Source: an uncultured Verrucomicrobiae bacterium (GTDB lineage: Bacteria; Verrucomicrobiota; Verrucomicrobiia; Chthoniobacterales; Terrimicrobiaceae). From it: a stretch of 64,000 nucleotides of DNA. This document shows, piece after piece, positions 18,044-39,427 of the stretch (its first letter is position 1; every line of letters begins with the position of its first letter). Both the position numbers and the translations under genes were made by a program. The notes under the pieces are model-generated. The model did no database searches and was not told the DNA's origin. It was given only the letters and a program-made list of their open reading frames with translations. Location: assembly GCA_963706955.1 (NCBI GenBank), contig CAVPOC010000002.1, forward strand, positions 224,001 through 288,000. Reading direction: 5' to 3'.

Positions 18044-18263
18044 TGTTCTCCTTGGAACTTGTAGAGAACGATCCCTCCGTGCAAGCCCGGATGTGGTTAT
18101 TCCCCGATTCGCAGCCAGCCTGTTCGGAGTTCAGCGCGAACGGTCGGCCAAGAGGCTGGAGCGCCCCTGAGCGGAAGAAAGAGAACACAGGGGCGGTTCG
18201 CATCGGATAGATGAATATGACCAATTCTTGCGCTATTGGTCATTCCAACCGGGACATTGGACT

Positions 18264-21938: not shown

Positions 21939-21982
21939 GCGGAATCTTGCCGGCACCGTTCTTCTGACGTAGTGGTGCCTTC

Positions 21983-22432
21983 ATGCGTATCGCCTCATTA
22001 ACAATCGCTTTCGCGCTCGTCTTTATGTCCTTCACAAACGCGCAATCCGGCCTTCAGGAAGGGGAGCGTTTTCTCAAGGAAAATGCCACCAAACCTGGCG
22101 TCAACACGACTTCCTCCGGTCTCCAGTACAAGGTGCTTCAGGAGGGGACGGGCAAGAGTCCGAAGGCGACAGATGTCGTCGTCGTCAATTACCGTGGGAC
22201 GCTCATCAACGGCAAAGAGTTTGACAGCTCCTACAAGGCCGGAAAGCCGATCGAGTTTCCTCTGAATCGTGTCATTCCTGGTTGGACCGAAGGTGTCCAG
22301 CTGATGAAGGAAGGTGCGAAGTACGAATTCTATATTCCTCCGAATCTGGCCTATGGTTCTCGCGGGGCCGGCGGGGTCATTGGTCCGGACGAAACCCTGA
22401 TCTTTGAAGTGGAATTGCTTAAGGTCAGGTAG
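21983..22432 (+). CDS. FKBP-type peptidyl-prolyl isomerase with signal peptide
   Basis: SGLQYKV, YRGTL..EFDSS, VIPGWTEG, LIFEVELL. Confidence 0.95.
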   Translation: MRIASLTIAFALVFMSFTNAQSGLQEGERFLKENATKPGVNTTSSGLQYKVLQEGTGKSPKATDVVVVNYRGTLINGKEFDSSYKAGKPIEFPLNRVIPGWTEGVQLMKEGAKYEFYIPPNLAYGSRGAGGVIGPDETLIFEVELLKVR

Positions 22433-22463
22433 GCTGGGCTGAGCGCCGCTGGTCATCACCCTG

Positions 22464-23735: not shown

Positions 23736-23790
23736 CGGCGACGATGTCCCCATCGTCACGATCTTCGGCGGCGGGGACGCCGCCGCTACA
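23733..23790. repeat. GTAG-type REP doublet (left unit degenerate)
   Basis: GCGACGATGTCCCCATCGTC ... CGGCGGCGGGGACGCCGCCGCTACA. Confidence 0.7.
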
Positions 23791-23838
23791 GACGCTTGCT
23801 CGCATTACCCACGAGATTGCAGGCGCTCGTGATGACTA

Positions 23839-23930
23839 AGCGCCAACGGCGCGACTTCAACGTCAGCCTGGGGCGGCCGCCCCAGGGACGGTCCAAAGAA
23901 AAGATGAACAGCGCTGAAGGCGCGATTCAT
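23839..23930. repeat. Second REP-like hairpin element
   Basis: GCGCCAACGGCGC, CCTGGGGCGGCCGCCCCAGG and GCGCTGAAGGCGCGATTCA hairpins; the GGCGCGATTCA piece recurs near 20838 and 29657. Confidence 0.5.
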
Positions 23931-23969
23931 CACAGGCCGTGTTCGCCTTGTTGCGCGCGCCCTGCGCCC

Positions 23970-24347
23970 CTAATTCTTCAAGCGATAGCAGACCTCGAGC
24001 CTGTTACCGGCGGGATCTTCGAAGAATACTCCGTAATACGCCTCGGAGCCTTCATAGCTGGGACCTTCGATATTTCGCGCACCGATCTTCCTGAGCACTT
24101 GTGCGATTTCATCGACTTCGGCGATGCTCGGCGCCCAAAAGGCTATTCGATTTTCGTTCGGCCTGTGTCCCGGCGACTGAGTCACACCGAAGAACTCGGT
24201 TGGTCCCTCGCCTTGAGTAGAGAATTGCAACCAGCCGGGAATGTTCATGTCTTCGGTAAAGCCGAGCCGGGGCAGGAGCGCGCCGTAGAACTCTCTAACC
24301 GATGCAAGGTCCGCAACGCGAAGATCAATGTGGTCGAAGCGACGCAT
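23970..24347 (-). CDS. VOC/glyoxalase family protein
   Basis: DHIDLRV, FY..LLPRLGF, FEDPAGNRLE. Confidence 0.9.
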   Translation of the reverse strand: MRRFDHIDLRVADLASVREFYGALLPRLGFTEDMNIPGWLQFSTQGEGPTEFFGVTQSPGHRPNENRIAFWAPSIAEVDEIAQVLRKIGARNIEGPSYEGSEAYYGVFFEDPAGNRLEVCYRLKN

Positions 24348-24361
24348 GCGGAGCTTTCAAG

Positions 24362-25360
24362 TTAGCAGTCGGCGATTGCTCGAGCGACAGGCTCGACCTG
24401 ACCCCGGCACCATTCGGAAAGAAACTCGACGATCCTTCGTTCAGCCCAGCTTTGCTTGCGCGAGAGGGAATCGTAAAAGCCAAGGTGGCCGCCCGCGGTC
24501 GGCGCTTCGAGGAACACGTGTGCGCTCGCCTTCGCTTCCTCGAAAGGAAGACAATTTGGAGTTAAGAACGGGTCATCTTGCGCACTAAGGATGAGGGTCG
24601 GAACGGTAATCGCGCCAAGGAATTGCCGCGAGCTGCACCGCGTCCAGTAGTCACTGGCGTCGCGAAATCCATGGACTGGCGCGGTAAATCGTCCGTCGAA
24701 ATCTTCAAATCCACGAATGCCTTTGGTTTGGCTGGCGTCGATCTGCTCTGGGAAATGCTTCGCCTTGGCCTTTACCTTCCGCACGAGCGTGGCGATCAAT
24801 CGCCGCAGATAAAGGCGGTTGGTCCTCCGTTGGTCGAGCGCACGCGCACTCGCCGTCAGATCGACGGGAGCTGAGATCGCGGCGGCGCAAGCGACCGCGC
24901 TGTGCGGACGAGCTTCACCGAGATATTTGAGGACGAGGTTTCCACCCAGGCTGAAGCCGATCAAAGCGATTCGCGAAAAGCGGCGGGCCGCGTGCTCAAT
25001 GACGAGCGCCAGATCTGCCTGTCTCTCCGCTATGGTAAAGGCGTGGTAGGCGATTTAGTTCTCCGCTGCAGCCGCGATAATTCCACGCAAGGACGTTCCA
25101 GCCGCTCGCTGCAGCGTCCGGGCCATGCCGCAGATGGTGGCGTCCTGGGAAGATCCTTCCAACCCATGTGAAAGGATTGCCAGATCGCAGCCGAGAGCTG
25201 GCAACCAGTCTAAATCCAGAAAATCGCCATCGGCAAGTTCCAGCCTTTCGCGCTGATATGGCAGACGCATCTTCCTCCTGGAGATAACTGGCAGCAGCGT
25301 TTGCAGGTGCGCGTTGCGCAACAGAAAGGGCGGATGGAACTGCGAGCGAATGACCGGCAT
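24362..25360 (-). CDS. YheT-like alpha/beta hydrolase (frameshifts)
   Basis: NAHLQT, DGDFLDLDW, HGLEGSS, GFSLGG, AQDDPF, GGHLGF. Confidence 0.88.
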
Positions 25361-25460
25361 CTTAGAAAGCTTCTCTACTCTAGCGTTCGGCGCATCCCGC
25401 CGGAAGCCATATTCCCGAAACGGTGCTACGAAGAAGCGTAACAGTGTCGACTTCTCTTGT

Positions 25461-25491
25461 TGTGGAGGCGGTTGTGCCAACCGCCCCTACA
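25461..25491 (-). repeat. Single GTAG-type REP of a different subfamily
   Basis: Minus strand reads TGTAGGGGCGGTTGGCACAACCGCC, a GTAG followed by a hairpin. Confidence 0.5.
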
Positions 25492-25512
25492 ATGAAGTGC
25501 CACAGGCCGCCT

Positions 25513-26612
25513 CTACTTTACGTCGATGATGGTGTTCTTTTCGACAAGCTCGCTCATGAGAAAAGCATCCCAATTGGACATTCGAATGCAGCCGTGGCTT
25601 TCGTTTCGTCCGATCTGATCCGGGTGGGGCGTTCCATGCATGCCCACACTGGGTTTGTTGATGGCCATCCAGACGACCCCGACTGGGTTGTTGGGCCCGG
25701 GGGGCAGGTTGTAGGCATTGTCGCTGCGGACCCCATTTTCCAGAACCGACTTGTCCCAGCGAAAGTAGGGCATGAGGACATTCGCTGGTCACTTTCCATT
25801 GCCCGTCCGGAACCGGCACCTCGCGCGACCCCGGAGTGCAGGGAAAGCAGGCGACCAAGCGATCACCTTCATAGAGCTCAATGAGTCGCTCAGCACGGAG
25901 GAGTTCCAAGCGCCGAATCGGAGTCTCTCCACCCGAAGCCGGTGTTGCCGACGCGGTTCCATTCTCGGCCGGCGAGGGAGATGGCGCAGCTGCTTGCGAG
26001 GAATCGTCCTGCTGTTCTCTGGAACCTTTTTTCGCTTTCTCCTCCTCCTTGCGCTGCTTTTCAAGTGCTACGACTTTGGCGATTTCAAATTCGGTGACAT
26101 CCGGCACGCGCAAGACTGAGCCTACGGTCAGCTCGCCCTTGGGAGCCTTCCCATTGAGCTCGCGCAAAAAATCCAAGTCGCAGTGGAATCGTTCGGCGAC
26201 AAGCTCCCACAGGTCCGCATAGAGCATCGCCTTGAGCGTTTCTTGCTCCGGCGGGCTCCGAGGCCTGCGGGCCTATCCAATCCAAATCCTCTTTGGTAAT
26301 GGTGTAGTCGCGATAGGGCGCGGAGATGCTCGAAACGTCCAGGCGGGTTCCCTCGGGCAGACCGTTCGCGCGGCAGTAGCGATCCGCCGCCTTTTGCGTG
26401 AACTCTCCACCGAGCCCGTCGATCTTGCCTGGTCGAAAGTTCGCGCGGTCCAAAAAGATCTGCACGCGCACCATCTCCATGCGTTCTGCTGAATCGGGCG
26501 ATTGCTTCTGCAACCGGGCGATCTGCGCCTTCAACGGCGTCTTGGCATCCAGCTCGATCCCCGCACCGCACAGGAGCGCGGCAAACAAGATTAGTCGGAA
26601 TCTGGAAAGCAT
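25513..26612 (-). CDS. L,D-transpeptidase (YkuD family) with peptidoglycan-binding/LysM-like regions (frameshifts)
   Basis: QIFLDR..F.PGKIDG, LVAERFH, PPGPNNPVG, GMHGT, SHGCIRM. Confidence 0.9.
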
Positions 26613-26861
26613 TGAGCGCAGGGCAAACGTTTTGTCCCTGCCGCAGGGGATGCCGCTGCAATCCGCAGTGCGCGTGGATCTGGGGTGGTCTTTCAATGGA
26701 AGATCTCGTTTACGGTCACGAGTTTATCGAATTTCGTGCGTGATGGGGATGCCTGGATGGGGACGCCGAAATTCCGTGGCAAGAGCGACACTACTCCTTC
26801 ACTTTCGAAGGAAACGCCGCGACTCGAGTTAAACGCTGAACTCAGCGAGCTTGCGGCTTCA

Positions 26862-28147
26862 CTACGGCCGGCGTCGATTCGGAGAGCCTGCCTGCGAGGA
26901 GCGAGATCTTCGAACCTCCAGAACGACCCAGCTGAGAAACATCAAGACGAATGAGACAATCAGCGGTGTCTTTTCGTCGATCGCCTGCAAGCCTCCGCCG
27001 AGGAAAGAAATCGTGCCGAAAGCGAATGCGTTTATGGCAGCGGTAATGCCCATGATCTCTCCCTTGGTATCCTCGGTCGAGAGATCGGTAAACAGAATGA
27101 TGAGCGCGCCAAACGAGACAGCAGTGGCAACGGATATCGGAAGGATAATCATCCATTGCGCGATCATACTCGGTGCGAAGGTGCTCACGACGATGAAGGC
27201 TGCGGTTGCGAGAAGGCTTCCGCTGGTGATCGCGTGCGCTGAAAAACGCTTCGTCAGAACAGGCATCGCCAAAGCAAAGCTGATGCAGAATCCGATTCCC
27301 ATGACTGCCATGAAGAGACTGGCATCCGTCACCGAGGCGTCAAAGCGATCCATTACGAAGTGGGCGACGAAAAAGAAGTATGCTCCCCAAGCCATCTCTT
27401 GAAGCAGGAAAACGCTGGAAACCCTCCGCAGGCCGGGCCGCTGGAATGCATGCGCCAGACTGTGCAATCCACTCAGCAGAGAAAGAGGCGTCTCGCTTCT
27501 GGGCCGAAGTTAGGCGCGGCGGTTCGCGAAAGAGGAACAGAAGCAGGCAAAAATTTAGCACGGCGAGAGCTACTGTGGCGAGGAGCGGGGTCTGTGTGTT
27601 GAACCAGGGCATAATGCTGCTGTCGGACAACAACCCACTGAGGGCGGGGCCCACCACGAAGCCAACCGAAGACGCAAGTAATCCCATGCTCAGCCAAAAA
27701 TCGCGCTTCTCGGGCGCGGAGACATCGACGAGCGCAGCCAGCGAAATCGGCTGGCTGGCCGCGGTCATGCCGCCGAGAGCTCGGCCGACCATTACGAGAA
27801 TGATCGAACCGAGCGCAAAGGCGCTGCTGAGTATTGTGTAGCTCAAGACGATTCCTACCGCACAAATCAGCAGCATCCGCTTACGTCCGACACGATCGGA
27901 AAGCTGGCCCAGGATCGGTGCACCGAAAAACATCATCATCGGGTAGAGTCCCGTGGCGACTCCGTAGATAATGTAGCGAGCATCTTCGCTTAACCCCGCG
28001 CCAATAGCCGCTGTCGAGTCTGGCGCGAGCTCCGCCGCCAGCAGCGGAGTCAGCATTGCGAAGCCCATCGAGTCGATCAGGACGATCAGCAGGAGGGGCA
28101 ACGCCGCCGCCGGTGAGGAAGCTTTCGCTTGTTCGCGGCGGAGTCAT
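26862..28147 (-). CDS. MFS transporter, TetA/DHA1-like (frameshift near 27470)
   Basis: IDSMGFA, GAPILGQLSDRVGRK, GFVVGPALSG; about 12 hydrophobic segments over two ORFs. Confidence 0.88.
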
Positions 28148-28235
28148 TCCTGAAGTGGGAAGGCAGGCGCCTTCATCGAAAGAGCTCGCTCATACAAACG
28201 GAGGCAAATTCAGGACGCGGTGGAAACGCGCCCAG

Positions 28236-29192
28236 CTACCATTCCAGCCCGGCATCCTGCCAACGCTTGAGCTTCTCAGGCTCAGTCGATGCGAACGCTC
28301 CACGGTAGTCACCTTCGGAGTATTTGAGATTCATAGCGCGCACCCCGCCCTGGACCACGCGAATCGAACCGGACTTCGCCTGCTTAAAATCGTCGCTGGC
28401 TCGATGGATAATACCCAAAGTGCTGTGAGGCAAGAACGGCTCTACCAGGCAGCCTTTTTCTGCATCATACATGGGAAACGCCTGATGGCACATCCAGTTG
28501 CACGTGCTCGGCAGGAACTCGATGCCGTTCTCAATGTGTTCCTCGAGATTCTCAAAAATCTCCAGATTGAACGAACATTGCTCGACGTGAAAATTCGGTT
28601 CCTTCTCCAAGGCACGCCGAATGCGATCGTCGACGCGGTCCCAAATAACCGACTTCGCTGGCATGGCAAACACGCCAGTATTGATGATCGGATAATCGCG
28701 ATACTTCTCAGCGTAATCCGAGCCGTGCAAATCCTTATAGATCTTTGTCAGGAACTGACGGAACGACTTCGAATTTCTGTAATTGGATTTGTAGGAACGA
28801 TCGATCTCCGGCGTCACGGCCATGACGCCTTTGCGGGCGCCGGCAATGTAGAGCTCGACCGCAAACCAGTCCTGGATCCAAGCGTCCGCGTCGATATGAA
28901 AATAGACTTCGTAGCCGGGGAAATATTTGCGGACATGCAAGCGCGCCAGCAGCGCCTTGAACCCGATCGGGAAGCCGGACGACGCGCTCAGCCCGTACTC
29001 CCAGTCGGGATTGGCCACGGTCACCTTCTGATCTTCGAGCCACTCGATCTGTGCGGGGGACATCCCGAGGTCCACGACCGAGATGTCAATGGTCGAGCCC
29101 TGCGGCTTTTCTCGGACGGAAAGGACCAAGCCTTGGAAGAAGTGAAAAAACTCGGCGTTGCAGCCGCTCGTAATGGTAGTCGTATTGCCCAT
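28236..29192 (-). CDS. Putative GT-A fold glycosyltransferase-like protein
   Basis: DLGM, YFPGY..YFHIDADAW (DxD), INTGVF, EQ..FN, NW motifs reminiscent of GT8-like enzymes. Confidence 0.6.
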   Translation of the reverse strand: MGNTTTITSGCNAEFFHFFQGLVLSVREKPQGSTIDISVVDLGMSPAQIEWLEDQKVTVANPDWEYGLSASSGFPIGFKALLARLHVRKYFPGYEVYFHIDADAWIQDWFAVELYIAGARKGVMAVTPEIDRSYKSNYRNSKSFRQFLTKIYKDLHGSDYAEKYRDYPIINTGVFAMPAKSVIWDRVDDRIRRALEKEPNFHVEQCSFNLEIFENLEEHIENGIEFLPSTCNWMCHQAFPMYDAEKGCLVEPFLPHSTLGIIHRASDDFKQAKSGSIRVVQGGVRAMNLKYSEGDYRGAFASTEPEKLKRWQDAGLEW

Positions 29193-29763
29193 ACTCGATG
29201 AGAAAGGTGGGAGGATTCGAAACTGGCGGACTCTTTCACATCAGGGCGCGAAAAGAATGTCAAAGTGATGAATGGACCAACACGGGGTAAACGGCTTGGC
29301 CCAAACTTCCCAGCCCTCGAGACCGCATGGCAGCAGGGCCGCGATGTGACAAGCCCCACTGCGGTCTAAGAGATTATATAGGCGACCGCGAAGAGTGTAG
29401 GGGAGCTTGTGTCAAGCGGCAACGAAAGCCACAGGCGCTTGGCAAGCGTCTCCACAAATGGCTTCTCGTGACCGGCACCCTGTTATAACACGACTGCCCC
29501 TGATCGGGTAAAGCGCCACGGGCGCGGCTTGAATCGTTAACCCGGGGGCCAACCGTCCGAGGTATCGGTGTCACCGCCGCATTGATCGCCTCCGCCGACG
29601 ACAATTTCAGCCCGGGAAATCGCCAGGTCCGCGCAACAAATCACAAAGCAGCCTGAGGCGCGATTCACTCAAACACGTACGCTGACTGACTTGAAAGCTT
29701 CTTTTCCAGTCCGTTGCTACGATGAGAATTGCCACATCGTCGCTCGGTTCGGAATATCGGGCC

Positions 29764-30401
29764 ATGTTTATCGAAAACGTAAGCCGTTCCGTTGAGGCCG
29801 GAGCTGAGAACCTGCGAAGAGCGCTCCTACGCTTAGTTTACGAGAGCCGGGGAATTCATCTGCCGCCGTAGCTTTTCGCTGGGCAGAGGCACCCGGCTCG
29901 TCTCTGCTGGCCAAATGCGACGCCGAAATAAGAAATGGTCTGAACCTTGGCGACTATAACCTGCTAAAAGTTTACGAGCCGTCGAGAATCGTCTTGGGTG
30001 AGAACTTCACCACGCGGAGAAGTTGTATTTTTCAGCTCTTCGGAGGCGAGTTGGCCATCGGCGACAACGTCTTTTTTAACAATCATTGCTCCGTTACTTG
30101 CTTTGGAAAAATCGAAATTGGCGACAACACGTTCTTTGGAGAAGGGGTGAAAATGTACGACCACAACCACAAGCATGAGTTCCGGGAAACCGGCCTCTAC
30201 GCCTTCCCAACGGAATTCAAAATCGGGCAGATCAAGATCGGAAGAAACTGCTGGGTGGCGAGCAACGTGACGATCTTAAATAACGTGACGATCGGCGACA
30301 ACGTGATCGTCGGAGCAGGTTGCCTGATTCACAAGGCAGTTCCCTCCAATACCATCGTCATGCGAAAAGAAGAACTTATCTTCAAACAGGCAAAACAATA
30401 A
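29764..30401 (+). CDS. Hexapeptide-repeat acyltransferase (5' part frameshifted, start uncertain)
   Basis: IGDNVFFN, IEIGDN, DHNH, IKIGRNCWVASNVTIL..VTIGDNVIVGAG. Confidence 0.8.
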
Positions 30402-30477
30402 AGATTGTCGCGGCCGTGTCCCATCGCTACGCAGTCGTGCCGCGCCGGATCGGGCTCACGGCCGACCCACCTTAGGG

Positions 30478-31169
30478 TTAGGGATTCCTCCTGTCGCAGA
30501 CGAAAACCCAGTTTTCGGTTCGCCCGAACGATATCGGGCAGAACTCGGTTTTGCCGACCAGCGACTCCATTTTCCTAAACAGATCTTGGCATTCAGTTCG
30601 CACCTCTTGGTTATGAATGGCGACATTAAAAAAGCAAATTCCCTGAGGCGCTAAGAGTCGGCCCAATCCTCGCGAGAAATTCCTCTTGTTTGAATTGTTG
30701 CGGAACCTCGACGCCCACGAAAACATCCACCACGATCAGGTCGAACTGCTGATCACACCGCGCAACGAAAGCGCCGGCATCCTCCAGGTGCAGCGAAAGG
30801 TCTTTGTATCGCTCTATCCGAAAATACTTCTTCGCCAGATTCGATCACCACGGGATCCTTCTCGACGCCAGTGAGATGAACTGCCTTCTTATATTCTTCA
30901 CACAAGATACTGGCCACGCTGCCTGCTCCGAAGCCGAGGATGAGCGCATTGGCGATTTCCCTTTCCTGGACATCGAACTGGGAAAAAGCCTCGCGAAAGA
31001 CTGCATCGAGTCCTCCAAATGAGTAATTAACACGGACCGCATCGAGGACGTATCGACCTTTGGAGAGGTAAATTTCAAGCCGTGGCGTGACCACGCCTAT
31101 TCGTTCTTCGACCTTCATCGGCGCAATGAAACTGGCGAAGAACCGCAGAAGATTCGCTGTCTGATTCAT
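30478..31169 (-). CDS. SAM-dependent methyltransferase, spermidine synthase-like (frameshifts)
   Basis: NYSFGGL, LILGFGAGS, GVEKDP, LAPQGICFFN. Confidence 0.8.
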
Positions 31170-31170
31170 T

Positions 31171-31196
31171 TGTAGCGACGATGTCCTCATCGTCGA
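31171..31196 (+). repeat. Single GTAG-type REP
   Basis: TGTAGCGACGATGTCCTCATCGTCG. Confidence 0.7.
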
Positions 31197-31254
31197 CGAT
31201 GGCATCGAGCGGTTCAACCCTTACCCGAGCATCACTCATGGAGTGACATCTTGC

Positions 31255-32679
31255 TCAGAGTTCAGCGGCAATCCGCGGAATTACGCATTCCAATAGGGCG
31301 GTCAATCGCCCCGGCAGCTGCTGTCCGAACGAAAGCACGTCATTATGCGCGATCTGCTGCGTCTCCACACCAGCTGCAATATTCGTGATTGCGCAGGTTG
31401 CCAGGACGCGAATTCCCAAGTGCCGCGCGGCGATGACCTCCGGGACGACCGACATTCCAACGAGGTCAGCTCCCTGGTTGCGCAGCGAGCGGACTTCGGC
31501 GGGCGTCTCGTAGCTTGGTCCGGTGTGCCCGGCGAAAACGCCCTCAAGGAGAGAAAATCCAAGATTCTCGGCGCTCGAGCGGGCGATTTCTCGGTATCTT
31601 CGGTTGTAGACCTCGCTCATATCCGCGAAACGGGAGCCTAGTCGTTCGTCCGAAGAGCCCACCATCGGATTGCTTCCGAGCAGATTGATGTGGTCGGAGA
31701 GAAGAACGAGGCTTCCGGGCGTGAATGCCGGATTTATGCCGGCGGCAGCAGAGGTAAACACCAGCGAGCAAATTCCCATTCGCGCGAGAATCCGGATCGG
31801 GAATACAACCGCATCGAGTCCCAGGCCTTCGTAATGGTGGAGGCGACCGCAGAGCACGGTGAGCGGCACGTCGGCGAGTTTTCCAATTATTAAGTGGCCT
31901 ACGCGGCTTGAGCGGTTCACATGCGGAAAGTGGGGGATTGTCTCATATTTTACGGTCGTCACTTCCGTCAGCCGATCGGCAATCTTGTCAAAAGCGGTCC
32001 CCAAAAGAAGGGCGATCCGCGGTCGGAACGCCGTCTGGTTCTCGATGAAACGGGCGGCTTCTTCCGCTCGCGCAAAGCTTCCTTGAAGCGCAGCAGCGGT
32101 TTTTTTCGTCTTCTCGACGCCACTCGGACCGGGGCTTGCGATGGTGTCGGGCGGCGGGAACATCGGCTCGACGAGCTCCTCGGCGATAATGGGCAATTGT
32201 GCGCCCTGCTTCGGGAAGCGCCGACGGTGTTGTCCCGTTAAGAATGCAAAGAGGCGTTTGTAACCCAACGGGCTGTCCAACAGGAAACTGGTAGCACCCT
32301 TAAGCGGCGACGGGATAAATTTTCTTTCAGAATCGGTAAAGACGACAGGAACAAACTTGATCGTGTTGAGCTTGTTCTCGTAAAGAGCATTGTAGATAAG
32401 GTTAGCCTCCCAGCAGACTCCCTGGCCGACATCGTTCGGCACCTTCTGCCGCACCTTGTTCCAATACAGTTCCGTGCAGACAAGTAGCACGTAATCGGCG
32501 CTCTCAATCCTGTCCTCCATCCAAATAGGCCACGGAATTTTCTCTTCATCGTCGCCGCGATTCTGGTCGATGAAAACCGTCAGACCATCTCGCATCAAGG
32601 ACGCGGCCAGCCGAAGAACGTTGTGGCTATGCTCCGGATTCGCCGGATCATGGCTGTAGCTTACGAAGACGCTCGGCAT
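31255..32679 (-). CDS. SEFIR/TIR domain fused to a purine nucleoside phosphorylase (PunA/XapA type)
   Basis: One open frame. N-terminus VFVSYSHD, VFIDQ, W..WM..I..AD.VL.VCT, GVCWEA, KFVPVVF. C-terminus GRLHHYEG, DHIN, GPSYETPAE, ADLVGMS..PE, ITN.A. Confidence 0.9.
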   Translation of the reverse strand: MPSVFVSYSHDPANPEHSHNVLRLAASLMRDGLTVFIDQNRGDDEEKIPWPIWMEDRIESADYVLLVCTELYWNKVRQKVPNDVGQGVCWEANLIYNALYENKLNTIKFVPVVFTDSERKFIPSPLKGATSFLLDSPLGYKRLFAFLTGQHRRRFPKQGAQLPIIAEELVEPMFPPPDTIASPGPSGVEKTKKTAAALQGSFARAEEAARFIENQTAFRPRIALLLGTAFDKIADRLTEVTTVKYETIPHFPHVNRSSRVGHLIIGKLADVPLTVLCGRLHHYEGLGLDAVVFPIRILARMGICSLVFTSAAAGINPAFTPGSLVLLSDHINLLGSNPMVGSSDERLGSRFADMSEVYNRRYREIARSSAENLGFSLLEGVFAGHTGPSYETPAEVRSLRNQGADLVGMSVVPEVIAARHLGIRVLATCAITNIAAGVETQQIAHNDVLSFGQQLPGRLTALLECVIPRIAAEL

Positions 32680-32848
32680 TTCTCCTCCATAGCACACGTG
32701 GATGCTCCGGCACGATTGGCTTCTTTAACGATGCTCCCAAGGGAGCATTAACCTTCCTCCTCGGTCTCCACCTTGAACCGACTCCCTGCTTGGGTTATCA
32801 GAGAGTTCGGCACCCGTAGCTCAGTGGATAGAGCACCGGTCTTCTAAA
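32495..32848. repeat. Direct repeat copy 1 (SEFIR 5' end, promoter region and tRNA 5' half)
   Basis: Aligns with 39038..39393: near-identical around the start codon and tRNA, diverged further into the SEFIR codons. Confidence 0.92.
32810..32848 (+). pseudogene. 5' half of tRNA-Arg(TCT), putative att junction
   Basis: GCACCCGTAGCTCAGTGGATAGAGCACCGGTCTTCTAAA is identical to 39355..39393, then diverges just after the anticodon loop. Confidence 0.9.
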
Positions 32849-32849
32849 T

Positions 32850-33060
32850 CCGTTTCTGGTATTTTACCCTCATTTAGACGAACTCGGACAGCTTCGGACT
32901 GCTCGCTTGGCATAAGGATCGGCTTTGGATTTGGAACGGACTGATGCTGACAGCAGAGGTCCCAATCCCAATCGGCGTTAGTTTCCCTACGCCAAAGGAA
33001 GACAAATTTTTTGACAATGGCACCGGCTGTTTTTGAAAATTCCTGAAGGCTGGCATGCTA
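32850..33060. repeat. Island left-end non-coding sequence, diverged copy at about 36185..36410
   Basis: Shared CCTCATTTAGAC, GGACAGCTTYGGACTG, CGGACTGA, CCCAAT and GTTTTTGAA blocks in the same order and similar spacing. Confidence 0.65.
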
Positions 33061-33205
33061 GAAAGGCAGAACGGCCCTCTTTCTATATTCTCAAAAGCAG
33101 TGCGAGGACTGGCAGGAGTGAGCTTTCACCCGATATACTTCGTGAAGAGCGTTCAGGACATCCCTTTCAGGCCGAGGAGCTCTTGCGGAGTTTTAGGCAG
33201 TTGCG

Positions 33206-33660
33206 TCACCCGGCTTTAGTCTTCTCCAGTTCCGCCCGCACGGCATCGCGTTCGCGCGGCATGTTGAGCTTCGTAAATATATCAACGGCGGCAGCGAGCT
33301 TTTCCCGCTCTACCTGGCGATCACCTTGTTCGCGCGCGAGAAGGCCCCAACTCCAGTAGCAGTAAGCCATACTGGCCAGATTGCCAAGCTCCAGGCAGAT
33401 GGCTTCTTTCTTCTTGAGGAGCGCCATAGCCTCCTGCAACCGTCCCGACACACGCATAATCAAGGCCTGATTGCCGTAGCTCGCCTGTAAACCGTTCTTG
33501 TTGCCAAGCTCCACGCAGAGCGCCTCCTTTTTCCTGAGCAGCGACATGGCCTCTTCTAGCCGCCCGCAGGCACTTACGATCAGAGCTTGATTACCATAGC
33601 TCGCCTGCAAAACGTCTTTATTGCCCAGCCTCAGACAGAGTGCTTCGTCCTGCCGAGCGT
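33206..33660 (-). pseudogene. C-terminal fragment of a TPR-repeat protein
   Basis: Repeats of about 40 aa (EALC.ELGNK..LQASYGNQALI...GRL.EAM.LL) and an intact C-terminus; upstream sequence is unrelated. Confidence 0.8.
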
Positions 33661-33884
33661 GGCGAAGTGCAGTTTCCAATTCTCGAGTTCTCATTCTAAT
33701 TACAAGACCTCCTCGAATCGATACGAGTGTTTCACGCTCCAAGCCGGAATCCGTCTCCGTAGACGCCCAAGATCTAGGCCGCTGACGCCCACGTCAAGGC
33801 TCGGCAGCTTCGTACAGTAGTGGCATACACTCAACTGCATGCGTACCTCTTGTCGACGCCAGCCTCCCGGGTTCCCGCCTATTT

Positions 33885-34679
33885 CTAAAAAGATACAAGA
33901 ACATTATCGATGTGCGGTATATTAAACAACTCTTCCAACTCCTGTGTTACCGTATTTCCTTCCGCATCAAGCGTGTAGAAAGATACTCCATAACACGCCT
34001 CGTATGATTTAAGCATCTCTCTTAAAGGCACAAGCTCATCTCCCAAAGCGCCGGCATTCAACTCAAAAGATATAACATCCACCTGTCCGTTTTTAATGAG
34101 GCGCTCCATTCCTAACAATGCGTTATATTCTCCACCCTCAACGTCGATCTTAACGAAACCGATTCTGCCGACATTGTTTATGTGGTCATCGAGACTGACC
34201 GCTTTCACCTCAATAATTTCGAAAGACTCCGGTGGAACATTAATCGACAATGATTTTTGTGCTTCTTTAATTTTTAAGGACCCACAACCTCTGAATCTTG
34301 ACGGTTCAAGAAAGGGTAATGCTGCTTCTTTCTTATAAACGGCCAGCTGAAACAGATCCACATTGGACAAGTAATTCATTTTAGCATTTGCGACGGCAAA
34401 CTCGTAGTTCCTTGGGCTCGCCTCATAAGCAAAGACTCTGCCATGCTTGCCTACCCTGCGTCCTAAAAGAATCGTTGTATAGCCAATGTTCGCGCCGACA
34501 TCAATCACCGTGGAACCTTCGGGGATATGTCGTATTATAAAATTTGTTAGGGCAATATCAAATGCTCCATCGAGTACTAAGTCCGGCGTTATGCTTAGGT
34601 CGTCTGAGGGAGCAAGCATCTTGCCGCCCCATATAGGTGAGATTAGCACCTTCCCATGACCTATATATGTGCCTCTCAT
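33885..34679 (-). CDS. FkbM family methyltransferase
   Basis: IDVGANIGY, AYEASP, SLDD, VKIDVEGGE; AT-rich codons. Confidence 0.92.
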   Translation of the reverse strand: MRGTYIGHGKVLISPIWGGKMLAPSDDLSITPDLVLDGAFDIALTNFIIRHIPEGSTVIDVGANIGYTTILLGRRVGKHGRVFAYEASPRNYEFAVANAKMNYLSNVDLFQLAVYKKEAALPFLEPSRFRGCGSLKIKEAQKSLSINVPPESFEIIEVKAVSLDDHINNVGRIGFVKIDVEGGEYNALLGMERLIKNGQVDVISFELNAGALGDELVPLREMLKSYEACYGVSFYTLDAEGNTVTQELEELFNIPHIDNVLVSF

Positions 34680-35242
34680 TGCCTCGTTTGACAAGCTACC
34701 ATCATAGCCGTTTGAAGATTGCCGGAGTTCTTGATCCGTCGGAAAGTGACATATGAGTCTCTGCTAAAGCTTAGGTATCTGTGAGTTACGGAGCAACGTA
34801 AACGGAAAACCGCCGCCGCCCTCAATACGCACGCATTTAGGACGGGCCCGGATGGAGTCCGGAAGAGCGATTAGCGCCTCGTTGATCATTCGCGACTTGG
34901 GAGCGCGATACGCATAAACATAAATAGTGGCGCAGTAAACTTTAAGGATGTGCGAGAGGCGTGTTATAAATAATACGACTCTCCTGCTGAGATGTGGGAG
35001 AGCAGCTTATCGGCAGGGTTTCGGCTTGAGCTCGATCGAGCCCGCGGTTTCCTTCGGCAACGGGGTAGGTCTCTCCTCAGAATCTTGGTATTCGATACCA
35101 TACGCTCTCCTGTATTGATGACCCGATAAGCCCGTCTGAAGAGTCCGCGCCCTTCGGCAGTATGAGCTCCCGTGACTTACACAAGCCTTCCAATAGACGT
35201 GTAGCTCGGTCGTTTGTTACGAGCACTAGTCGGGTCGCGATG

Positions 35243-35608
35243 CTATACGTTCTTTTCCATTAGCGATCTTCGTACCAAAACACGATCACGTCTTCCCCTG
35301 TTCGATGTGGCGGCTGAGGCCTCAAAATCCTTCCTGCGGCGCAGCAACGACTGTTCCCACTGGTCAAGGAGTCGGAAAACGCCTTTCCCACGTTTGGCGC
35401 AATGAACCGAATACAGCAACGCGACGAGCCAGAGGGAAAACTCAACCCACCCGAGTTTCGTGAGACTCTCGAATGGACACTCGAAACGCAGAATTAGAGG
35501 AACGGCTAGAAGGAACAATAGACCTCCTCCGAGGTAGACAGCAACGGTAACAGACAAAAAGTGATCATGCTCACGATTCAGGGCCTTATCGCGACTAAAT
35601 TCCCTCAT
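35243..35608 (-). CDS. Hypothetical membrane protein
   Basis: ORF with two hydrophobic segments; no recognisable family. Confidence 0.4.
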   Translation of the reverse strand: MREFSRDKALNREHDHFLSVTVAVYLGGGLLFLLAVPLILRFECPFESLTKLGWVEFSLWLVALLYSVHCAKRGKGVFRLLDQWEQSLLRRRKDFEASAATSNRGRRDRVLVRRSLMEKNV

Positions 35609-35794
35609 ACATCCCAATTGTGCAGTTAACCGGGCGATGACAGCAGAAAGCGACGAGGTGGTTAAGAGTCCAGTAAACAGCTATTGCGTCCGAAAAACGA
35701 CATACATTGCAAGGACTTTGGTGCAGTGTAAAAGTTAAAGATGAACGACTTATCGGATTCTTTAGTCGGTTTTTTTGAGTCGCGTCATGCCGCC

Positions 35795-35867
35795 CCCCAG
35801 CCGCGGCAATCCAGAGTTTTCGCAGTACGGGGTTTTGCAGTGCTGCCCAAGTGGAGCTCGTAATCAT
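35795..35867 (-). pseudogene. N-terminal scrap of an MFS transporter
   Basis: SSTWAALQNPVLRKLWIAA resembles typical MFS_3 N-termini, followed by unrelated sequence. Confidence 0.35.
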
Positions 35868-36184
35868 GATCGCAAGTATCTTCACTCGTTACAAACGCGG
35901 CGGGGTCGCGGAGTTTCAGGAATTTCTGTTCCTAAAATTGCTTTTCATCCGCTATCTGTTGGTCAAGGCCGATTCTTTGGTGAAACCCGACCATGATCCG
36001 CGGACGAGGTGCTTGTACGCGACGCATTCGACTGTTTGCGACGGCAACCATTCTCTGGCCATTCCCAAGGTTCTCTCAAGCAGTCGTCGCGAATACACAT
36101 CTGCCAGTTTATCGAACGTACGCCGATAAGAGTCCGCCGGACAGAGTCTTACAACCTTTTCTTAAGAATGCCAAGGGGAAGATC

Positions 36185-36410
36185 TTATTCGTTTTCGATA
36201 TATTTGCCTCATTTAGACCTTGGACAGCTTTGGACTGTTCTTTTGGGATGAAGATTTGGGAGCGAATTTGAAGCGGACTGACGCGGACGGAAAAGGCCCC
36301 AATTCCAACATGCGGGTTACTTTTCTGGGTTACTTTCCGGAATGCCGAAGAAGGGGAGTCTTTTGGCTCATGCCACCCGGTTTTTGAATTTTCCGAACGG
36401 TTGGCTGCAG
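36185..36410. repeat. Second diverged copy of the island left-end sequence
   Basis: CCTCATTTAGAC 36207-36218 and GGACAGCTTTGGACTG 36222-36237 match 32868-32879 and 32886-32901. Confidence 0.65.
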
Positions 36411-37597
36411 AGAAGATCGGTACGGTCTCCATTCAATTTTCTCTAATCGCCTGGGGCCTGGGGGAGGTAAGAAGGCTTGGCCTCCTCTCTCGACCTTGCC
36501 GACCTGGAATCCGAATCACGGACGCCGGCAGCAGAAACGTTTTCTCCGAAGAACCTGCGCGGGCTTGCGTGCCGTCGAAAGCGTAGCGGCGAAGTATCGA
36601 TCAATTCGTAGACGATGCAATGCACTTTTTTTGGTGAATCTCCCTTAATGAGATCCACAACATCCGACAAGGTAGAGCTGCGGGATGAGTGTGAGCACGT
36701 CGTTCGGCGTCGAACAGCAGCCACTCGAAGCCAGCGAGGCCGAGGAACTTTCTACGCTCGCGAAAACTCGGGTTCGACCTTTGTCCACTTCCACCCGTTG
36801 CTCGCGGATCCGTCGGAATACAAACGGCGAGCACGCTTGAATCCGTATCTCTTCAAGATTCTCCCAATCAATGGATTCCAATCCTCCTAAACGGCAATTG
36901 TGGAGAATACTTCTTTCGCGGCTGCCAACTGAAAGTATGTCCAGTCTATCGCCGGAAACATAAGCAAGACCTCTCACTCCGTGCGTTGTGTCGAACCTGT
37001 TGTATCCGTTTTAAGTGTTAGACTCCTCGGATCCGGCTCGAACGAGGAGAAGAATTGGGGGTTACTCTTGTGACGCTTTACGCGAGGCAGACCGGAGTTT
37101 ATCGCCCTCTCTTGGTTCATAGGATCAGTGTGACGGAGATTTCACATTCTTCTCATGGCATCTTATCGTAACGCCAATAGCTTCTCGTTATGATGTAGGG
37201 ACCCTCTGATTTTGCGGGGACCAAAGCTTCCTTAAGCTGGAACGCGAGCAATTGCATGAACGACCTCTAATTGGTCGTGTCGATCACTGGCGCTGATGAC
37301 GACTCCCGCACCAGATCAATCGAATCAGAGCAGTCTTTTTTGTTTTCATATCCCTCTCCGGAGATGGCAAGGGTTATTCGGTTTTTGGCACGCAGCCTCC
37401 ACCGGTATTCTCCAGCCTGATCTTTGAATATCGTGTAAATCATAAATGAGCCTGATACGCTGCTTCAGCTGCGGCGCGCAAACATTTCATGCATGCGAGC
37501 TTGTCGCGATACTGTTGCCAAAAGGTGGAGCTTTTCGCCAAATGCCGGCCAACCTGAAGCGTTGCCAAACTGCAAACCGCGGAAATTGCGCGCGCTG

Positions 37598-37711
37598 TCA
37601 GCTTCTTCGAACTGGGGAGAACATCGTCTTGCCCAGGAGGTCGGGCTGTTTCGCGATGTCTTGCTTCATCGAAGGAATATGAAGGAAATCCTCTTCTTCT
37701 TCCAATGGCAT
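37598..37711 (-). CDS. Candidate 37-aa micro-protein, copy A
   Basis: MPLEEEEDFLHIPSMKQDIAKQPDLLGKTMFSPVRRS*; lies in a ~150-bp repeat shared with about 38762..38910. Confidence 0.35.
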   Translation of the reverse strand: MPLEEEEDFLHIPSMKQDIAKQPDLLGKTMFSPVRRS

Positions 37712-38083
37712 TTATTCATATTGGTGATAACTCAACCTTATACGTTGCTTTCGCGTCCAACCGTCGTACAGAGCTTCCGCGTGCTCCGCTCCCTTAAGCG
37801 CAATGGCTGCTTAGTTTCAAGTTGTAGGCCTGAAGGAAAAGAATAGTTTCAAATCCCTCTCTCTAAGGAGAAGCGAATAGCCAATCCCTATCAGAGAGCA
37901 TTTCGACTTTATGGGACAGCCGCAACCACCGTCAGAAGCCATGATCTCGTCTTAATATAAAATTAGATGCGTTTCCTCGTGCATTATTCAAAAGGTATGA
38001 AAATCGGCCAACTTTCCAGCTAGAAAGCGCCGTTTTGAGTCAATCGTGTTCCGCCAAACGATCATGCCGCTGAATCCCTGCTG

Positions 38084-38515
38084 CTAAAGGCCTCGTCTCG
38101 TACGGAAGAGAACACTTTGCCTACGAGAAAACAAAACCTCCTTTCCGTCCCTTAAAAGAAAACTGAGGCCTCCATCTTTCAGGAAACGTGGTTGCTTCAC
38201 TTGGCTGAGATTGACGATACAATCACGGCTGGCGCGAAAGAAGATTGAGCTGTCCAACCTGCGCCCAACTTCCACGAGGGAGCGACGAATGAGGAACTTG
38301 TCGTCGGCGAAATGGACGAGCGTGGTATTCCGGAACGCCTCAAGAATGGAAATGTCTTCGATCCGCGCGAGCCGACATTTGCTATCGTCGTCGGTCAGGA
38401 GAACGAAATCGTCACGATGAAATATGTGTCGCTTGCTCTCCGCAGTTGGAGCCGGCGACCGCTCCGATTGTATTTGGACTGCCACTAAAGAGTGGTATGT
38501 GGTTTTCGAATTCAA
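38084..38515 (-). CDS. Stand-alone LytTR DNA-binding domain protein
   Basis: DISILEA.RNTT.VHF, LIRRSL...RLD..FFRASR..IVNL, FSRRQS; no receiver domain. Confidence 0.88.
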   Translation of the reverse strand: MNSKTTYHSLVAVQIQSERSPAPTAESKRHIFHRDDFVLLTDDDSKCRLARIEDISILEAFRNTTLVHFADDKFLIRRSLVEVGRRLDSSIFFRASRDCIVNLSQVKQPRFLKDGGLSFLLRDGKEVLFSRRQSVLFRTRRGL

Positions 38516-38768
38516 TAGGGATGATCTCTGCTTGATGCCGTTCTTCTGCCCGCCTTGAAAGAGCTCGAGATTCCGCCAAAACGATGCTCACGGAGACAAG
38601 GACTCAGACAAGCTTAGGATGCGTATACTGAAAGCTGGTTTGGAACCTTCGGGTGCTGGCGGCGCGCTAAGACGGGTATGACCTTTCGTTAGTGCCAGAT
38701 CGGCAGAGGTACGAATACCAAAGGCCCTGCCGTACGAGAAAAGCGTGGAAGTTGCGCGTCGCGCGCTA

Positions 38769-38881
38769 TCAGCTACGCTGAACTGGGGAAAGCACCATCT
38801 TGCCCAGGAGCCGGGGCTGTTCCGCGATGTCTTGCTTCATGGGAGAATGTGACGGAGATCCTTTTGTTCTTCCAATGGCAT
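38769..38881 (-). CDS. Candidate micro-protein, copy B (1-bp indel relative to copy A)
   Basis: MPLEEQKDLRHIL / MKQDIAEQPRLLGKMVLSPVQRS*; same start and stop positions as copy A. Confidence 0.33.
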
Positions 38882-38976
38882 TTATTCATATTGGTGATAA
38901 CCCAAAGTTATGACATACCTTCGCCGCCCAAGGGCTAAAAGGAACGGCTGCCAATGGCTCAATTTATTCTGTTTAA

Positions 38977-39222
38977 CTAATCAGCGAGACATCTATCTGT
39001 GCAACTTGGTCCGAAGCACTTTCCGCACCCTTCAAATTCGGCCCTCTCGATCCTGTCCTCCATGCAGATAGGCTGGGGAATCTTCTCCTCGTCCGCGCTC
39101 CGATTCTGGTCGACGAAAACCGTCAGGCGATCTCGCATTAAGGACGCCGCCAACCCTAACACGTTTCGACTATGCTCCGGATTCGCCGGATCATGGCTGT
39201 AGCTTACGAAGACGCTCGGCAT
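38977..39222 (-). pseudogene. Truncated SEFIR/TIR N-terminus, paralogue of 31255..32679
   Basis: MPSVFVSYSHDPANPEHS...MEDRIERA, then similarity is lost and an early stop follows. Confidence 0.88.
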
Positions 39223-39393
39223 TTCTCCTCCATAGCACACGTGGATGCTCCGGCACGATCGGCTTCTTTAACGATGCTCCCAAGAAGGACATCAAGCTTC
39301 TGCCCTCGGTCTCCACCTTGAACCGACTCCCGGCTTAGGTTATCAGAGAGTTCGGCACCCGTAGCTCAGTGGATAGAGCACCGGTCTTCTAAA
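39038..39393. repeat. Direct repeat copy 2
   Basis: Aligns with 32495..32848. Confidence 0.92.
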
Positions 39394-39427
39394 CCGATGG
39401 TCGCAGGTTCGATCCCTGCCGGGTGCG
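39355..39427 (+). tRNA. tRNA-Arg(TCT), CCA not encoded
   Basis: Acceptor stem GCACCCG/CGGGTGC, D arm GCTC..GAGC, anticodon loop CTTCTAA, T loop GGTTCGATCC. Confidence 0.95.

Follow-up and report, generated by a model that had tools for sequence, protein, structure and literature searches.

A SEFIR effector domain joined to a remodeled PunA-type purine nucleoside phosphorylase in a rare soil-bacterial gene

A 64,000-nucleotide stretch of contig CAVPOC010000002.1 (positions 224,001 to 288,000, forward strand; assembly GCA_963706955.1) from an uncultured Verrucomicrobiae bacterium of the family Terrimicrobiaceae, hereafter the window, encodes at 31255..32679 on its minus strand a protein in which an N-terminal SEFIR domain is joined through a linker to a complete purine nucleoside phosphorylase (PNP). 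An earlier note, made from the letters of the window, had described this gene as a single open reading frame (ORF) joining a SEFIR/TIR domain and linker to a PNP of the PunA/XapA type, and Pfam, NCBIfam, PADLOC and a structural model all agree with that description. The novelty is a SEFIR immune effector on a new partner, an enzyme of a housekeeping clade with a rebuilt active site; a full-text literature search found no paper describing a SEFIR-PNP fusion. We tentatively favor, at somewhat less than an even chance, the explanation that the protein is a NADase of the bSEFIR type in which a PNP-derived module, acting as a trimeric scaffold and nucleoside-binding switch, has taken the place of the regulatory chassis, with the NADase activity, trimerization, gating and anti-phage role all predicted.

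Gene and domain architecture

The gene can be read as an uninterrupted minus-strand ORF from a GTG (31255..32697, 480 aa). An internal ATG at 32679, which gives 474 aa plus stop (31255..32679, minus strand), is preceded by a GGAGGAG Shine-Dalgarno sequence at 32682-32688 and is the start found in all orthologues and SEFIR relatives. The features of the gene are as follows.

31255..32679, minus strand: SEFIR-PNP fusion gene, 474 aa plus stop, alternative GTG start at 32697 (Pfam, NCBIfam, PADLOC, Shine-Dalgarno sequence)
32224..32679, minus strand: SEFIR/TIR-fold domain, residues 1-152, with invariant D38 and E91 (Pfam, PADLOC, profile against PDB 5y8e, model)
32098..32223, minus strand: linker, residues 153-194, proline-rich and predicted disordered (predicted local distance difference test, pLDDT, below 50; alignment)
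31258..32097, minus strand: PunA/XapA-type PNP domain, residues 195-474 (NCBIfam, residue alignment, Foldseek, VIA)

Pfam placed PNP_UDP_1 at residues 221-465 (8.8e-41), TIR_2 at residues 4-116 (6.6e-11) and SEFIR at residues 3-134 (8.8e-11). The NCBIfam PNP model NF006054 was matched with 300.6 bits against a cut-off of 218 and TIGR01697 with 268.3 bits against 197.1, whereas the narrower equivalog cut-offs for PNPH (256.4 versus 293.35), PUNP (228.8 versus 302.6) and XapA (206.6 versus 370.9) were missed. At E values up to 0.1, the only PADLOC match was bSEFIR (PDLC03957; E value of 4.4e-36, 123.6 bits) over residues 2-198, a model that matched none of 14 well-known genomes used as a control. 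Positions 213-412 of the bSEFIR model were unmatched, and it is there that the PNP sits in the fusion.

The motifs quoted in the earlier note were all present, namely GVCWE with the SEFIR glutamate (E91, codon 32407-32409, minus strand), GRLHHYEG, GPSYET, GMS and N433, together with GTA instead of GSG and TSAAAG instead of TNAAGG. The AlphaFold2 model (mean pLDDT of 81.9, predicted TM-score of 0.60) was well folded at residues 1-152 and 195-474, with pLDDT mostly 77-96 in the SEFIR domain and below 50 at residues 153-194, consistent with a disordered tether of ~40 residues. The PNP half superposed on trimeric PNPs (8swu with a TM-score of 0.94 and a root-mean-square deviation, rmsd, of 1.6 by Foldseek; 4uc0 with a Z score of 33.6 by VIA). 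For the N-terminal half, VIA ranked the SEFIR domains of Act1 (9ot1_E, Z of 15.6, rmsd of 3.6 over 153 aligned residues), IL-17RA (4nux, Z of 14.4) and Bacillus cereus (5y8f, Z of 13.5) ahead of TIR domains, which had Z scores of 12.1 or less. A search of the ESM Atlas gave no usable match.

The SEFIR module and its relatives

A search with residues 1-200 recovered 31 proteins of 260-830 aa, of which four were the PNP fusions and eight carried nSTAND1, while NACHT, AAA_16 or AAA_35 was present in others. Among the 25 proteins of 831-2370 aa, 19 listed nSTAND1, nearly all together with HEAT repeats, and a twentieth had an incomplete domain list. The full relatives, retrieved from loci in public collections, were proteins of 1,074-1,168 aa with SEFIR-nSTAND1 followed by HEAT repeats, WD40 or TIR. 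They shared 55-65% identity with the fusion from residue 1 to ~190, and each one fetched also matched the PADLOC bSEFIR model (7e-32 to 6e-44). In the alignment the similarity ran into the linker (LTGQHR..FPKQG...) and stopped at about residues 176-184, so the fusion junction lies at about residues 177-200.

Since the nearest relatives are SEFIR-nSTAND1-HEAT proteins and the similarity ends in the linker, the SEFIR module is the effector head of a family resembling the NOD-like receptors (NLR-like). These NLR-like proteins (SEFIR-nSTAND1-HEAT/WD40, uncharacterized; e.g., L022, L049 and P0149-P0168) share with the fusion the SEFIR domain and the first part of the linker but carry in addition a P-loop STAND NTPase and repeat sensors, some 1,000 further residues, neither of which the fusion has. 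Pfam detected no nSTAND, NACHT or AAA domain in the fusion, unlike its sister proteins. By this comparison, the PNP stands in the place of the NTPase switch and repeat sensor. The first part of the linker, residues 146-176 (about 32152-32244; LTGQHR..FPKQG..L....), has been conserved in the PNP fusions as in the SEFIR-nSTAND1 proteins, a hint that it may act as a peptide motif and be more than a passive tether.

SEFIR has been reported as a single-protein anti-phage system in which NAD+ is depleted via the N-terminal SEFIR domain (10.1101/2024.02.11.579819). The bSEFIR protein of Bacillus sp. NIO-1130 (10.1101/2022.05.11.491447) resembles the fusion in being encoded by a single gene, in its N-terminal SEFIR domain with an Asp (D38) and a Glu (E91), and in the PADLOC match of 4.4e-36. 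It differs in that the fusion has a PNP in place of the usual C-terminal region. D38 and E91 were invariant in all nine aligned SEFIR modules, and in the profile match to the B. cereus SEFIR structure 5y8e (1.2e-15), E91 of GVCWE was aligned with the Glu of GVGTE. The signaling SEFIR domain of Act1 (9ot1) has no Glu at this position. D38 is the putative counterpart of bSEFIR D40, for which a D40A mutant is reported to have lost defense (10.1101/2022.05.11.491447). The PADLOC match, the retained Glu and the NLR-like relatives together support the identification of the N-terminal half as an immune effector module of the bSEFIR type, in line with the candidate defense protein of the earlier note.

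An exhaustive search with a SEFIR-family profile found 9,639 representatives at E values up to 0.001 and 1,815 at E values up to 1e-30. A PunA-type PNP profile matched none of the best 150 of these (positive control, 9e-125). In the first 102 of the 150, the Pfam partners were a second TIR_2 (11), nSTAND1 (7), TPR (3), FGE-sulfatase (3), AAA_35 (2) and one each of NB-ARC, ROK, protein kinase and CHASE2, the remainder having mostly unannotated C-terminal regions. The C-terminal partners of the bSEFIR family, as far as they are annotated, are mostly switch- or sensor-like. Less usual members of the family were a SEFIR-ROK protein (P0226, 632 aa) and SEFIR-FGE-sulfatase proteins (P0224, P0249 and P0262). 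Another SEFIR protein (L054:5466-8969) has two consecutive nSTAND1 modules with a repeated linker and a C-terminal TIR_2, which reflects duplication within the protein or else a chimeric assembly.

The remodeled phosphate pocket

Four fusion PNPs (those of the window, P0003, P0004 and L047) were aligned with 131 stand-alone relatives. Seventy-two columns were at least 95% conserved in the stand-alone proteins; 53 were unchanged in all four fusions, 7 were changed in some and 12 in all. Nine of these 12 lie in phosphate-pocket elements, as listed here with counts out of 131 and with human PNP numbering.

GSGLG loop: S 131, G 131, L 130, G 125 in stand-alone proteins; T/A, A, F, D in the fusions
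GH loop: G 130, H 131 in stand-alone proteins; S, R/G in the fusions
Asn of TNAAGG: N 130 in stand-alone proteins; S in the fusions
Tyr 8 residues before the F/Y-E pair (Tyr192 equivalent): Y 131 in stand-alone proteins; F in the fusions
Thr after GMS (after the Ser220 equivalent): T 130 in stand-alone proteins; V/I in the fusions

The equivalents of Ser33, Gly34, His64, Asn115, Tyr192 and Thr221 were accordingly replaced in every fusion copy. In human PNP, as reported in PMC10226123, Ser33, Arg84 and His86 contact phosphate or phosphonate directly and Ala116, Tyr192 and Met219 through water, while the base is bound by Glu201 and Asn243 and the ribose pocket is formed by Phe200, His257 and Phe159 of the neighboring subunit; His64 is counted as an active-site residue in PMC9916683. 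Residues kept in the fusions were R279, H281, Y283, F351 and Y390 (equivalent to Arg84, His86, Tyr88, Phe159 and Phe200) and E391, M409, S410, N433 and H445 (equivalent to Glu201, Met219, Ser220, Asn243 and His257). The pattern in the alignment is a targeted one: phosphate ligands have been lost, and both the nucleoside pocket and the loop between subunits remain. The earlier note had read GTA and TSAAAG as motifs that had drifted; the changes are not random and are better described as part of a remodeling of the phosphate pocket across the clade. At several of the altered positions the four close copies differ from one another (T/A, R/G, A/G, V/I), which looks like relaxed constraint on this pocket. 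The remodeling argues against a classical phosphorolytic drain of nucleosides and mildly favors a switch or sensor.

Proposed mechanism

A scaffold or switch role for the PNP was favored because the C terminus in this family is usually a switch or sensor, the protein has just two domains, the nucleoside pocket is kept and the phosphate ligands have been shed. Purifying selection on both domains and the accessory status of the gene, which lies in an island at tRNA-Arg next to a polymorphic insertion and is broken in most other copies, also count in favor of the explanation. The gene would then encode a putative one-protein abortive-infection system that depletes NAD+. Its SEFIR head comes from an NLR-like SEFIR-nSTAND1-HEAT protein, with the NTPase and repeat sensor replaced by a horizontally acquired PunA-type PNP. 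This PNP retains a pocket for 6-oxopurine nucleosides and the loop by which one subunit completes the site of the next; with its conserved phosphate-binding side chains lost, it would no longer be an ordinary phosphorylase. The PNP trimer would carry three SEFIR domains on flexible 40-residue tethers, and a putative nucleoside-like ligand that rises in infection would bind the PNP, upon which the SEFIR domains could assemble into an active NADase and cleave NAD+ to ADP-ribose and nicotinamide.

It is a more doubtful proposition that a housekeeping trimeric PNP, its catalytic phosphate site dismantled but its nucleoside pocket kept, was exapted as an immune receptor that senses a phage-induced free (deoxy)purine nucleoside or analogue and switches on three SEFIR NADases. 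If true, the PNP would do, compactly and with no NTPase, the work of the entire STAND and repeat sensor found in NLR-like proteins. Should the favored explanation hold, it would show that an immune effector head can move from an NLR-type chassis onto a metabolic enzyme and that a core salvage enzyme can take on a new role as a sensor of small molecules or as a co-effector independent of phosphate. Known links of the PNP superfamily to immunity have so far been limited to the Cap17/DtcC clade; a PunA-type domain in such a role would widen the range of "housekeeping" folds worth checking in defense-gene searches. The fusion would also offer a small (474 aa), single-gene, easily mutated model for the gating of SEFIR/TIR NADases.

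Several points weigh against the trimeric scaffold and switch. The C3 symmetry of a PNP trimer differs from the head-to-tail geometry of active TIR assemblies. R279, H281 and S410, equivalent to the phosphate ligands Arg84, His86 and Ser220, are retained, and catalysis may survive; the human numbering used here was mapped by motif-level alignment, not by an inspected superposition. The clade is tiny (four 90% clusters among the matches listed, of 5.8 billion) and most of its copies are decaying, so that a dispensable or dying gene also fits. No recognized defense system was found in the 64-kb window or beside the copies in relatives (G001 and G016 included). As for the N-terminal half, the bSEFIR model was matched only at positions 39-212 of 412, and hmmscan scored TIR_2 (43.2 bits) about as high as SEFIR (42.7 bits); the Millman preprint assigned bSEFIR where the SEFIR match exceeded the TIR match by HHsearch (10.1101/2022.05.11.491447).

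The survival of catalysis is central to an alternative that we consider rather unlikely, in which the PNP is a second effector beside the SEFIR NADase, still active as a phosphorylase or, its phosphate ligands lost, as a hydrolase. It might, for example, destroy or divert nicotinamide and nicotinamide riboside to block the rebuilding of NAD+, or drain purine nucleosides. In its favor, the fusions retain the base and ribose contacts along with the equivalents of Arg84, His86 and Ser220, and the ratio of nonsynonymous to synonymous substitution rates (dN/dS) in the PNP domain is ~0.2. E. coli XapA, of the same family, is reported to interconvert nicotinamide and nicotinamide riboside (PMC3923242), nicotinamide being the SEFIR product, and phages are reported to rebuild NAD+ from nicotinamide, some with a predicted NadR/PnuC route through nicotinamide riboside (10.1101/2024.02.11.579819). 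There is also a protein, P0264, that joins SEFIR, TIR and a Cap17-type PNP effector in one polypeptide; its PNP is nevertheless of a different clade and has no BLASTP similarity to that of the fusion. Moreover, the replacement of Ser33, His64, Asn115 and Tyr192, invariant in 130-131 of the 131 stand-alone proteins, by residues that are themselves variable would be unexpected if phosphate were still needed, and two effectors would leave no evident sensor.

Rarity, selection and decay of the fusion

A whole-protein search of a database of 5.8 billion, in which 8,000 candidates were scored, gave 6,279 matches. Among the best 120 of these, the SEFIR and PNP architecture occurred in four 90% clusters, namely the window's own, P0003 (81%), P0004 (78%) and P0005 (68%). 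Near-identical DNA was present in 14 soil or rhizosphere runs from 9 studies (runs with at least half of the sampled words), and RNA runs contained just 0.05-0.07 of the words. The junction between the domains was bridged by contigs of four runs from four studies.

X1 record 1, 30803-32462: junction-bridging contig
X5 record 10, 31536-32661: junction-bridging contig, 0 differences
X6 record 19, 31908-32654: junction-bridging contig
X7 record 26, 31421-32667: junction-bridging contig

A misassembly at the junction, which the earlier note had raised, was ruled out by these four independent assemblies and by the independent orthologues. The fusion is a real gene but a rare one, confined to a tiny clade of soil bacteria that is partly in decay. 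One low-depth contig of run X6 joins 31277 to 32625 and skips most of the gene; with just 26 nt on one side, it was too weak for a deletion allele to be accepted.

By the Nei-Gojobori method, dN/dS between the window gene and five other copies over aligned codons was 0.075-0.15 for the SEFIR domain, 0.26-0.37 for the linker and 0.17-0.25 for the PNP, measured at dS of ~0.5-1 (2.2 in the short comparison with L065). Purifying selection has kept both domains. Open copies were those of the window, P0003 (475 aa) and P0004 (447 aa). Frameshifting indels were found in the copies of G016 (-1, +1, -2 and -1 nt), L048 (-2, -2 and +1 nt), L047 (-2 nt) and L079 (several). The G001 copy was in pieces with stop codons and lacked residues 222-391, the G005 copy retained residues 14-115 only, and the L065 copy ended after residue 131. 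A loss of 2 nt at codon 231 is common to G016 (L018), L048 and L079 and corresponds to a garbled 70-residue stretch in P0005. This deletion is followed by second indels near codon 300 that differ among the copies, leaving about 70 codons out of frame. The P0005 ORF stays open at 474 aa despite its frameshifts, so that gene callers report a seemingly intact protein.

Because the broken copies are 92-97% identical to each other yet carry different indels, their decay is recent and repeated. Such turnover is typical of accessory, costly genes and fits a gene on its way out too. The corresponding alternative, that the fusion is a dispensable chimera in decay that arose once in a soil lineage, lasted for some time and has no current selected function, or a marginal one, is in our view unlikely. 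It would account for an architecture confined to four clusters among the matches listed, for the frameshifted copies of G016, L048, L047 and L079, the remnants in G001 and G005, the garbled P0005 and a truncated duplicate in the window, and for the missing defense neighborhood and other broken genes nearby, such as a split MFS transporter. It does not sit well with dN/dS of 0.075-0.25 in both domains over a dS of ~0.5-1 (up to 2.2 in one short comparison), with three copies open over 447-475 codons, with the recency of decay shown by different indels in copies 92-97% identical, with near-identical DNA in the 14 runs of 9 studies, or with the nonrandom pattern of kept and changed PNP residues.

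Origin of the PNP half

The fusion was the sole TIGR01697 match in its genome (92.5% complete); the other PNP_UDP_1 protein is a methylthioadenosine/S-adenosylhomocysteine (MTA/SAH) nucleosidase (239.8 bits versus a cut-off of 169). Across the 19 genomes of the genus, TIGR01697 matched just the fusion (G000) or its fragments (G016 and G001), and 16 genomes had no PunA-type PNP, including seven of at least 90% completeness. The separate housekeeping punA for which the earlier note had suggested a check was therefore not found in the genome, and the genus lacks PunA apart from the fusion and its remnants.

A PNP tree was built with IQ-TREE in quick mode (LG+G4) from 58 rows, comprising 4 fusions, 38 stand-alone proteins, 10 PunA proteins of the host family or order and 6 from other phyla. 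The 38 were drawn from 115 stand-alone matches by taking the first 12 and then every fourth, and the frameshifted P0005 and P0006 were excluded. The fusion PNPs formed a clade at 100% support on a stem of 0.55, sister (97%) to a stand-alone group whose few named members are labeled Acidiferrales and Limnocylindrales. The 10 PunA proteins of the host family or order formed a separate clade (99% support). Forcing the fusion PNPs to group with host-order PunA cost 35.1 log-likelihood units (approximately unbiased [AU] test, p-AU of 0.021), a test run after the tree was seen on the earlier note's own hypothesis. The tree, the AU test and the genus without PunA together ruled out a vertically inherited housekeeping punA. 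The earlier note had asked whether the fusion might be the genome's only PNP and vertically inherited; the first part stands for PunA-type PNPs, and the second is rejected. The tree indicates instead that the PNP was horizontally acquired. Since the GC content of the gene (0.571) and that of its third codon positions (GC3, 0.66) resemble host genes, this acquisition was not recent.

The fusion PNP resembles PunA/XapA PNPs (TIGR01697; 8swu, 4uc0 and human PNP) in its complete fold, its base, ribose and inter-subunit residues and its score above the family cut-off, and it differs in the phosphate-pocket replacements, the long stem branch and the N-terminal immune domain. The Cap17/DtcC ATP-nucleosidase effectors of CBASS and Detocs likewise have a PNP-superfamily domain within an immune protein, in P0264 together with SEFIR too, but belong to a clade of their own related to MtnN, whereas the fusion PNP is of the housekeeping PunA/XapA clade. 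Defensive PNP domains are reported to form a clade distinct from XapA, DeoD, Udp and MtnN (10.1101/2023.01.24.525353). PADLOC gave no match of the fusion PNP to Cap17/DtcC-type defensive models, although P0264, as a positive example, did match. The trimeric PunA/XapA type named in the earlier note, as opposed to the Cap17/DtcC clade, is upheld by these results. P0264 (917 aa) consists of SEFIR, TIR_2 and PNP_UDP_1, and its PNP matched PADLOC PDC-M60C (1.6e-23) and the CBASS "PN-superfamily" effector model (6.5e-13); BLASTP found no similarity between this PNP and that of the fusion. Judged by these matches, SEFIR and a PNP-superfamily domain on one polypeptide have a precedent in the defensive clade, not in the housekeeping clade. 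AMP nucleosidase Amn (7uwq and 1ybf; VIA Z scores of 19.8 and 19.4 to the PNP half) also has an N-terminal regulatory domain before a PNP fold. With another N-terminal domain and a metabolic role, it resembles the fusion only in architectural principle.

A nonimmune purine or pyridine nucleoside phosphorylase with SEFIR as an interaction or regulatory appendage is improbable: although the fusion is the sole PunA-type PNP of a 92.5%-complete genome, exceeds the NF006054 equivalog cut-off, has host-like GC and GC3, and would suit an older view of bacterial SEFIR domains as general interaction modules (cited in 10.1101/2022.05.11.491447), 16 of the 18 other genomes of the genus lack a PunA-type PNP and evidently do not need the activity, the PNP is of foreign origin with its phosphate ligands replaced and scores under the PNPH, PUNP and XapA cut-offs, the SEFIR domain is nearest to NLR-type immune proteins and keeps the Glu that Act1 lacks, and the gene is often pseudogenized.

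Genomic setting

The earlier note had placed the gene at a tRNA integration hotspot. Its variable, tRNA-linked location was borne out in sharper form, with a partial tRNA copy 130 nt upstream and an X5 contig that leads directly into the 3' half of the tRNA. The features concerned are listed below.

39355..39427, plus strand: intact tRNA-Arg(TCT), 6.7 kb from the fusion gene
32810..32848, plus strand: partial tRNA-Arg(TCT) copy, first 39 nt, ending just past the anticodon loop, 130 nt upstream of the ATG
32495..32848: direct repeat of 354 bp, left copy, with the right copy at 39038-39393 (blastn 89%, last 90 nt 98%)
39038..39240, minus strand: truncated second copy of the gene's 5' end, ~63 codons, 83% amino acid identity, within an 87-aa ORF at 38977..39240
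32849..39037: low-GC (0.50) 6.2-kb insertion between the repeats, with TPR-like, FkbM methyltransferase and LytTR genes
26700..39354: island specific to this lineage, bounded by a conserved gene block and tRNA-Arg, 12.7 kb versus 1.2-2.4 kb in four genus relatives

The insertion duplicated the 354 bp of the repeat, which take in 203 nt at the 5' end of the gene, the region upstream of it and 39 nt at the 5' end of the tRNA. Contigs ending at 32848 ran on into the 3' half of the tRNA in each of the four runs examined. One X5 contig, with 0 differences, extended from 32663 through 32848 into this half, and nothing in X5 covered 32906-33200. Because the X5 contig bypasses it, the 6.2-kb insertion is a polymorphism of near-identical strains, and in the native order the gene is followed, after 130 nt, by tRNA-Arg. 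Other strains had different left flanks, starting at 31252 and at 30803, and G016 had a similar layout with another cargo of 3 kb (amidase). No integrase was found in the 6.2-kb insertion among ORFs of at least 50 aa. The duplicated part of the tRNA is its 5' half, not the usual 3' half.

Seven tRNA-locus stretches from the genus were compared. G011, G012, G013 and G015 have the counterpart of window positions 20954-26620, a conserved block, at a distance of 1.2-2.4 kb from the tRNA, and in G011 and G013 an LtrA gene separates the two. The tRNA is all that the stretches of G002 and G004 have in common with the window, and that of G001 has neither block nor flank. None of four candidate stretches in viral contigs was confirmed, and a phage origin was rejected.

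Elsewhere in the window and around the copies in relatives, PADLOC gave only generic ATPase, methyltransferase and SNF2 similarities. An SNF2 helicase at 18228-20606 (plus strand, 792 aa, SNF2_assoc) matched the DpdE and ZorD models down to 3e-139. An assignment as DpdE or ZorD was rejected, since the protein has the bacterial SNF2_assoc domain and no partner genes nearby, and it is probably a generic RapA-like protein. Within the island, a transporter of the major facilitator superfamily (MFS) is split into overlapping minus-strand ORFs at 26862-27467 and 27340-28101 (201 and 253 aa, both MFS_1) and is probably a frameshifted pseudogene. A TPR_MalT-like ORF at 33206-33742 (minus strand, 178 aa) contains a 120-nt tandem duplication at 33381-33620 (73% identical) and may be the remnant of a larger repeat protein. 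A 166-nt segment occurs twice, about 83% identical and 1.17 kb apart (37589-37754 and 38760-38924), flanking the LytTR gene at 38084-38515. In another species of the genus (G006:C26), tRNA-Arg lies at 83925-83998, and 10 kb away there is a 100%-identical copy of its 3' 46 nt (73989-74034), the classical mark left when an element integrates at this same tRNA.

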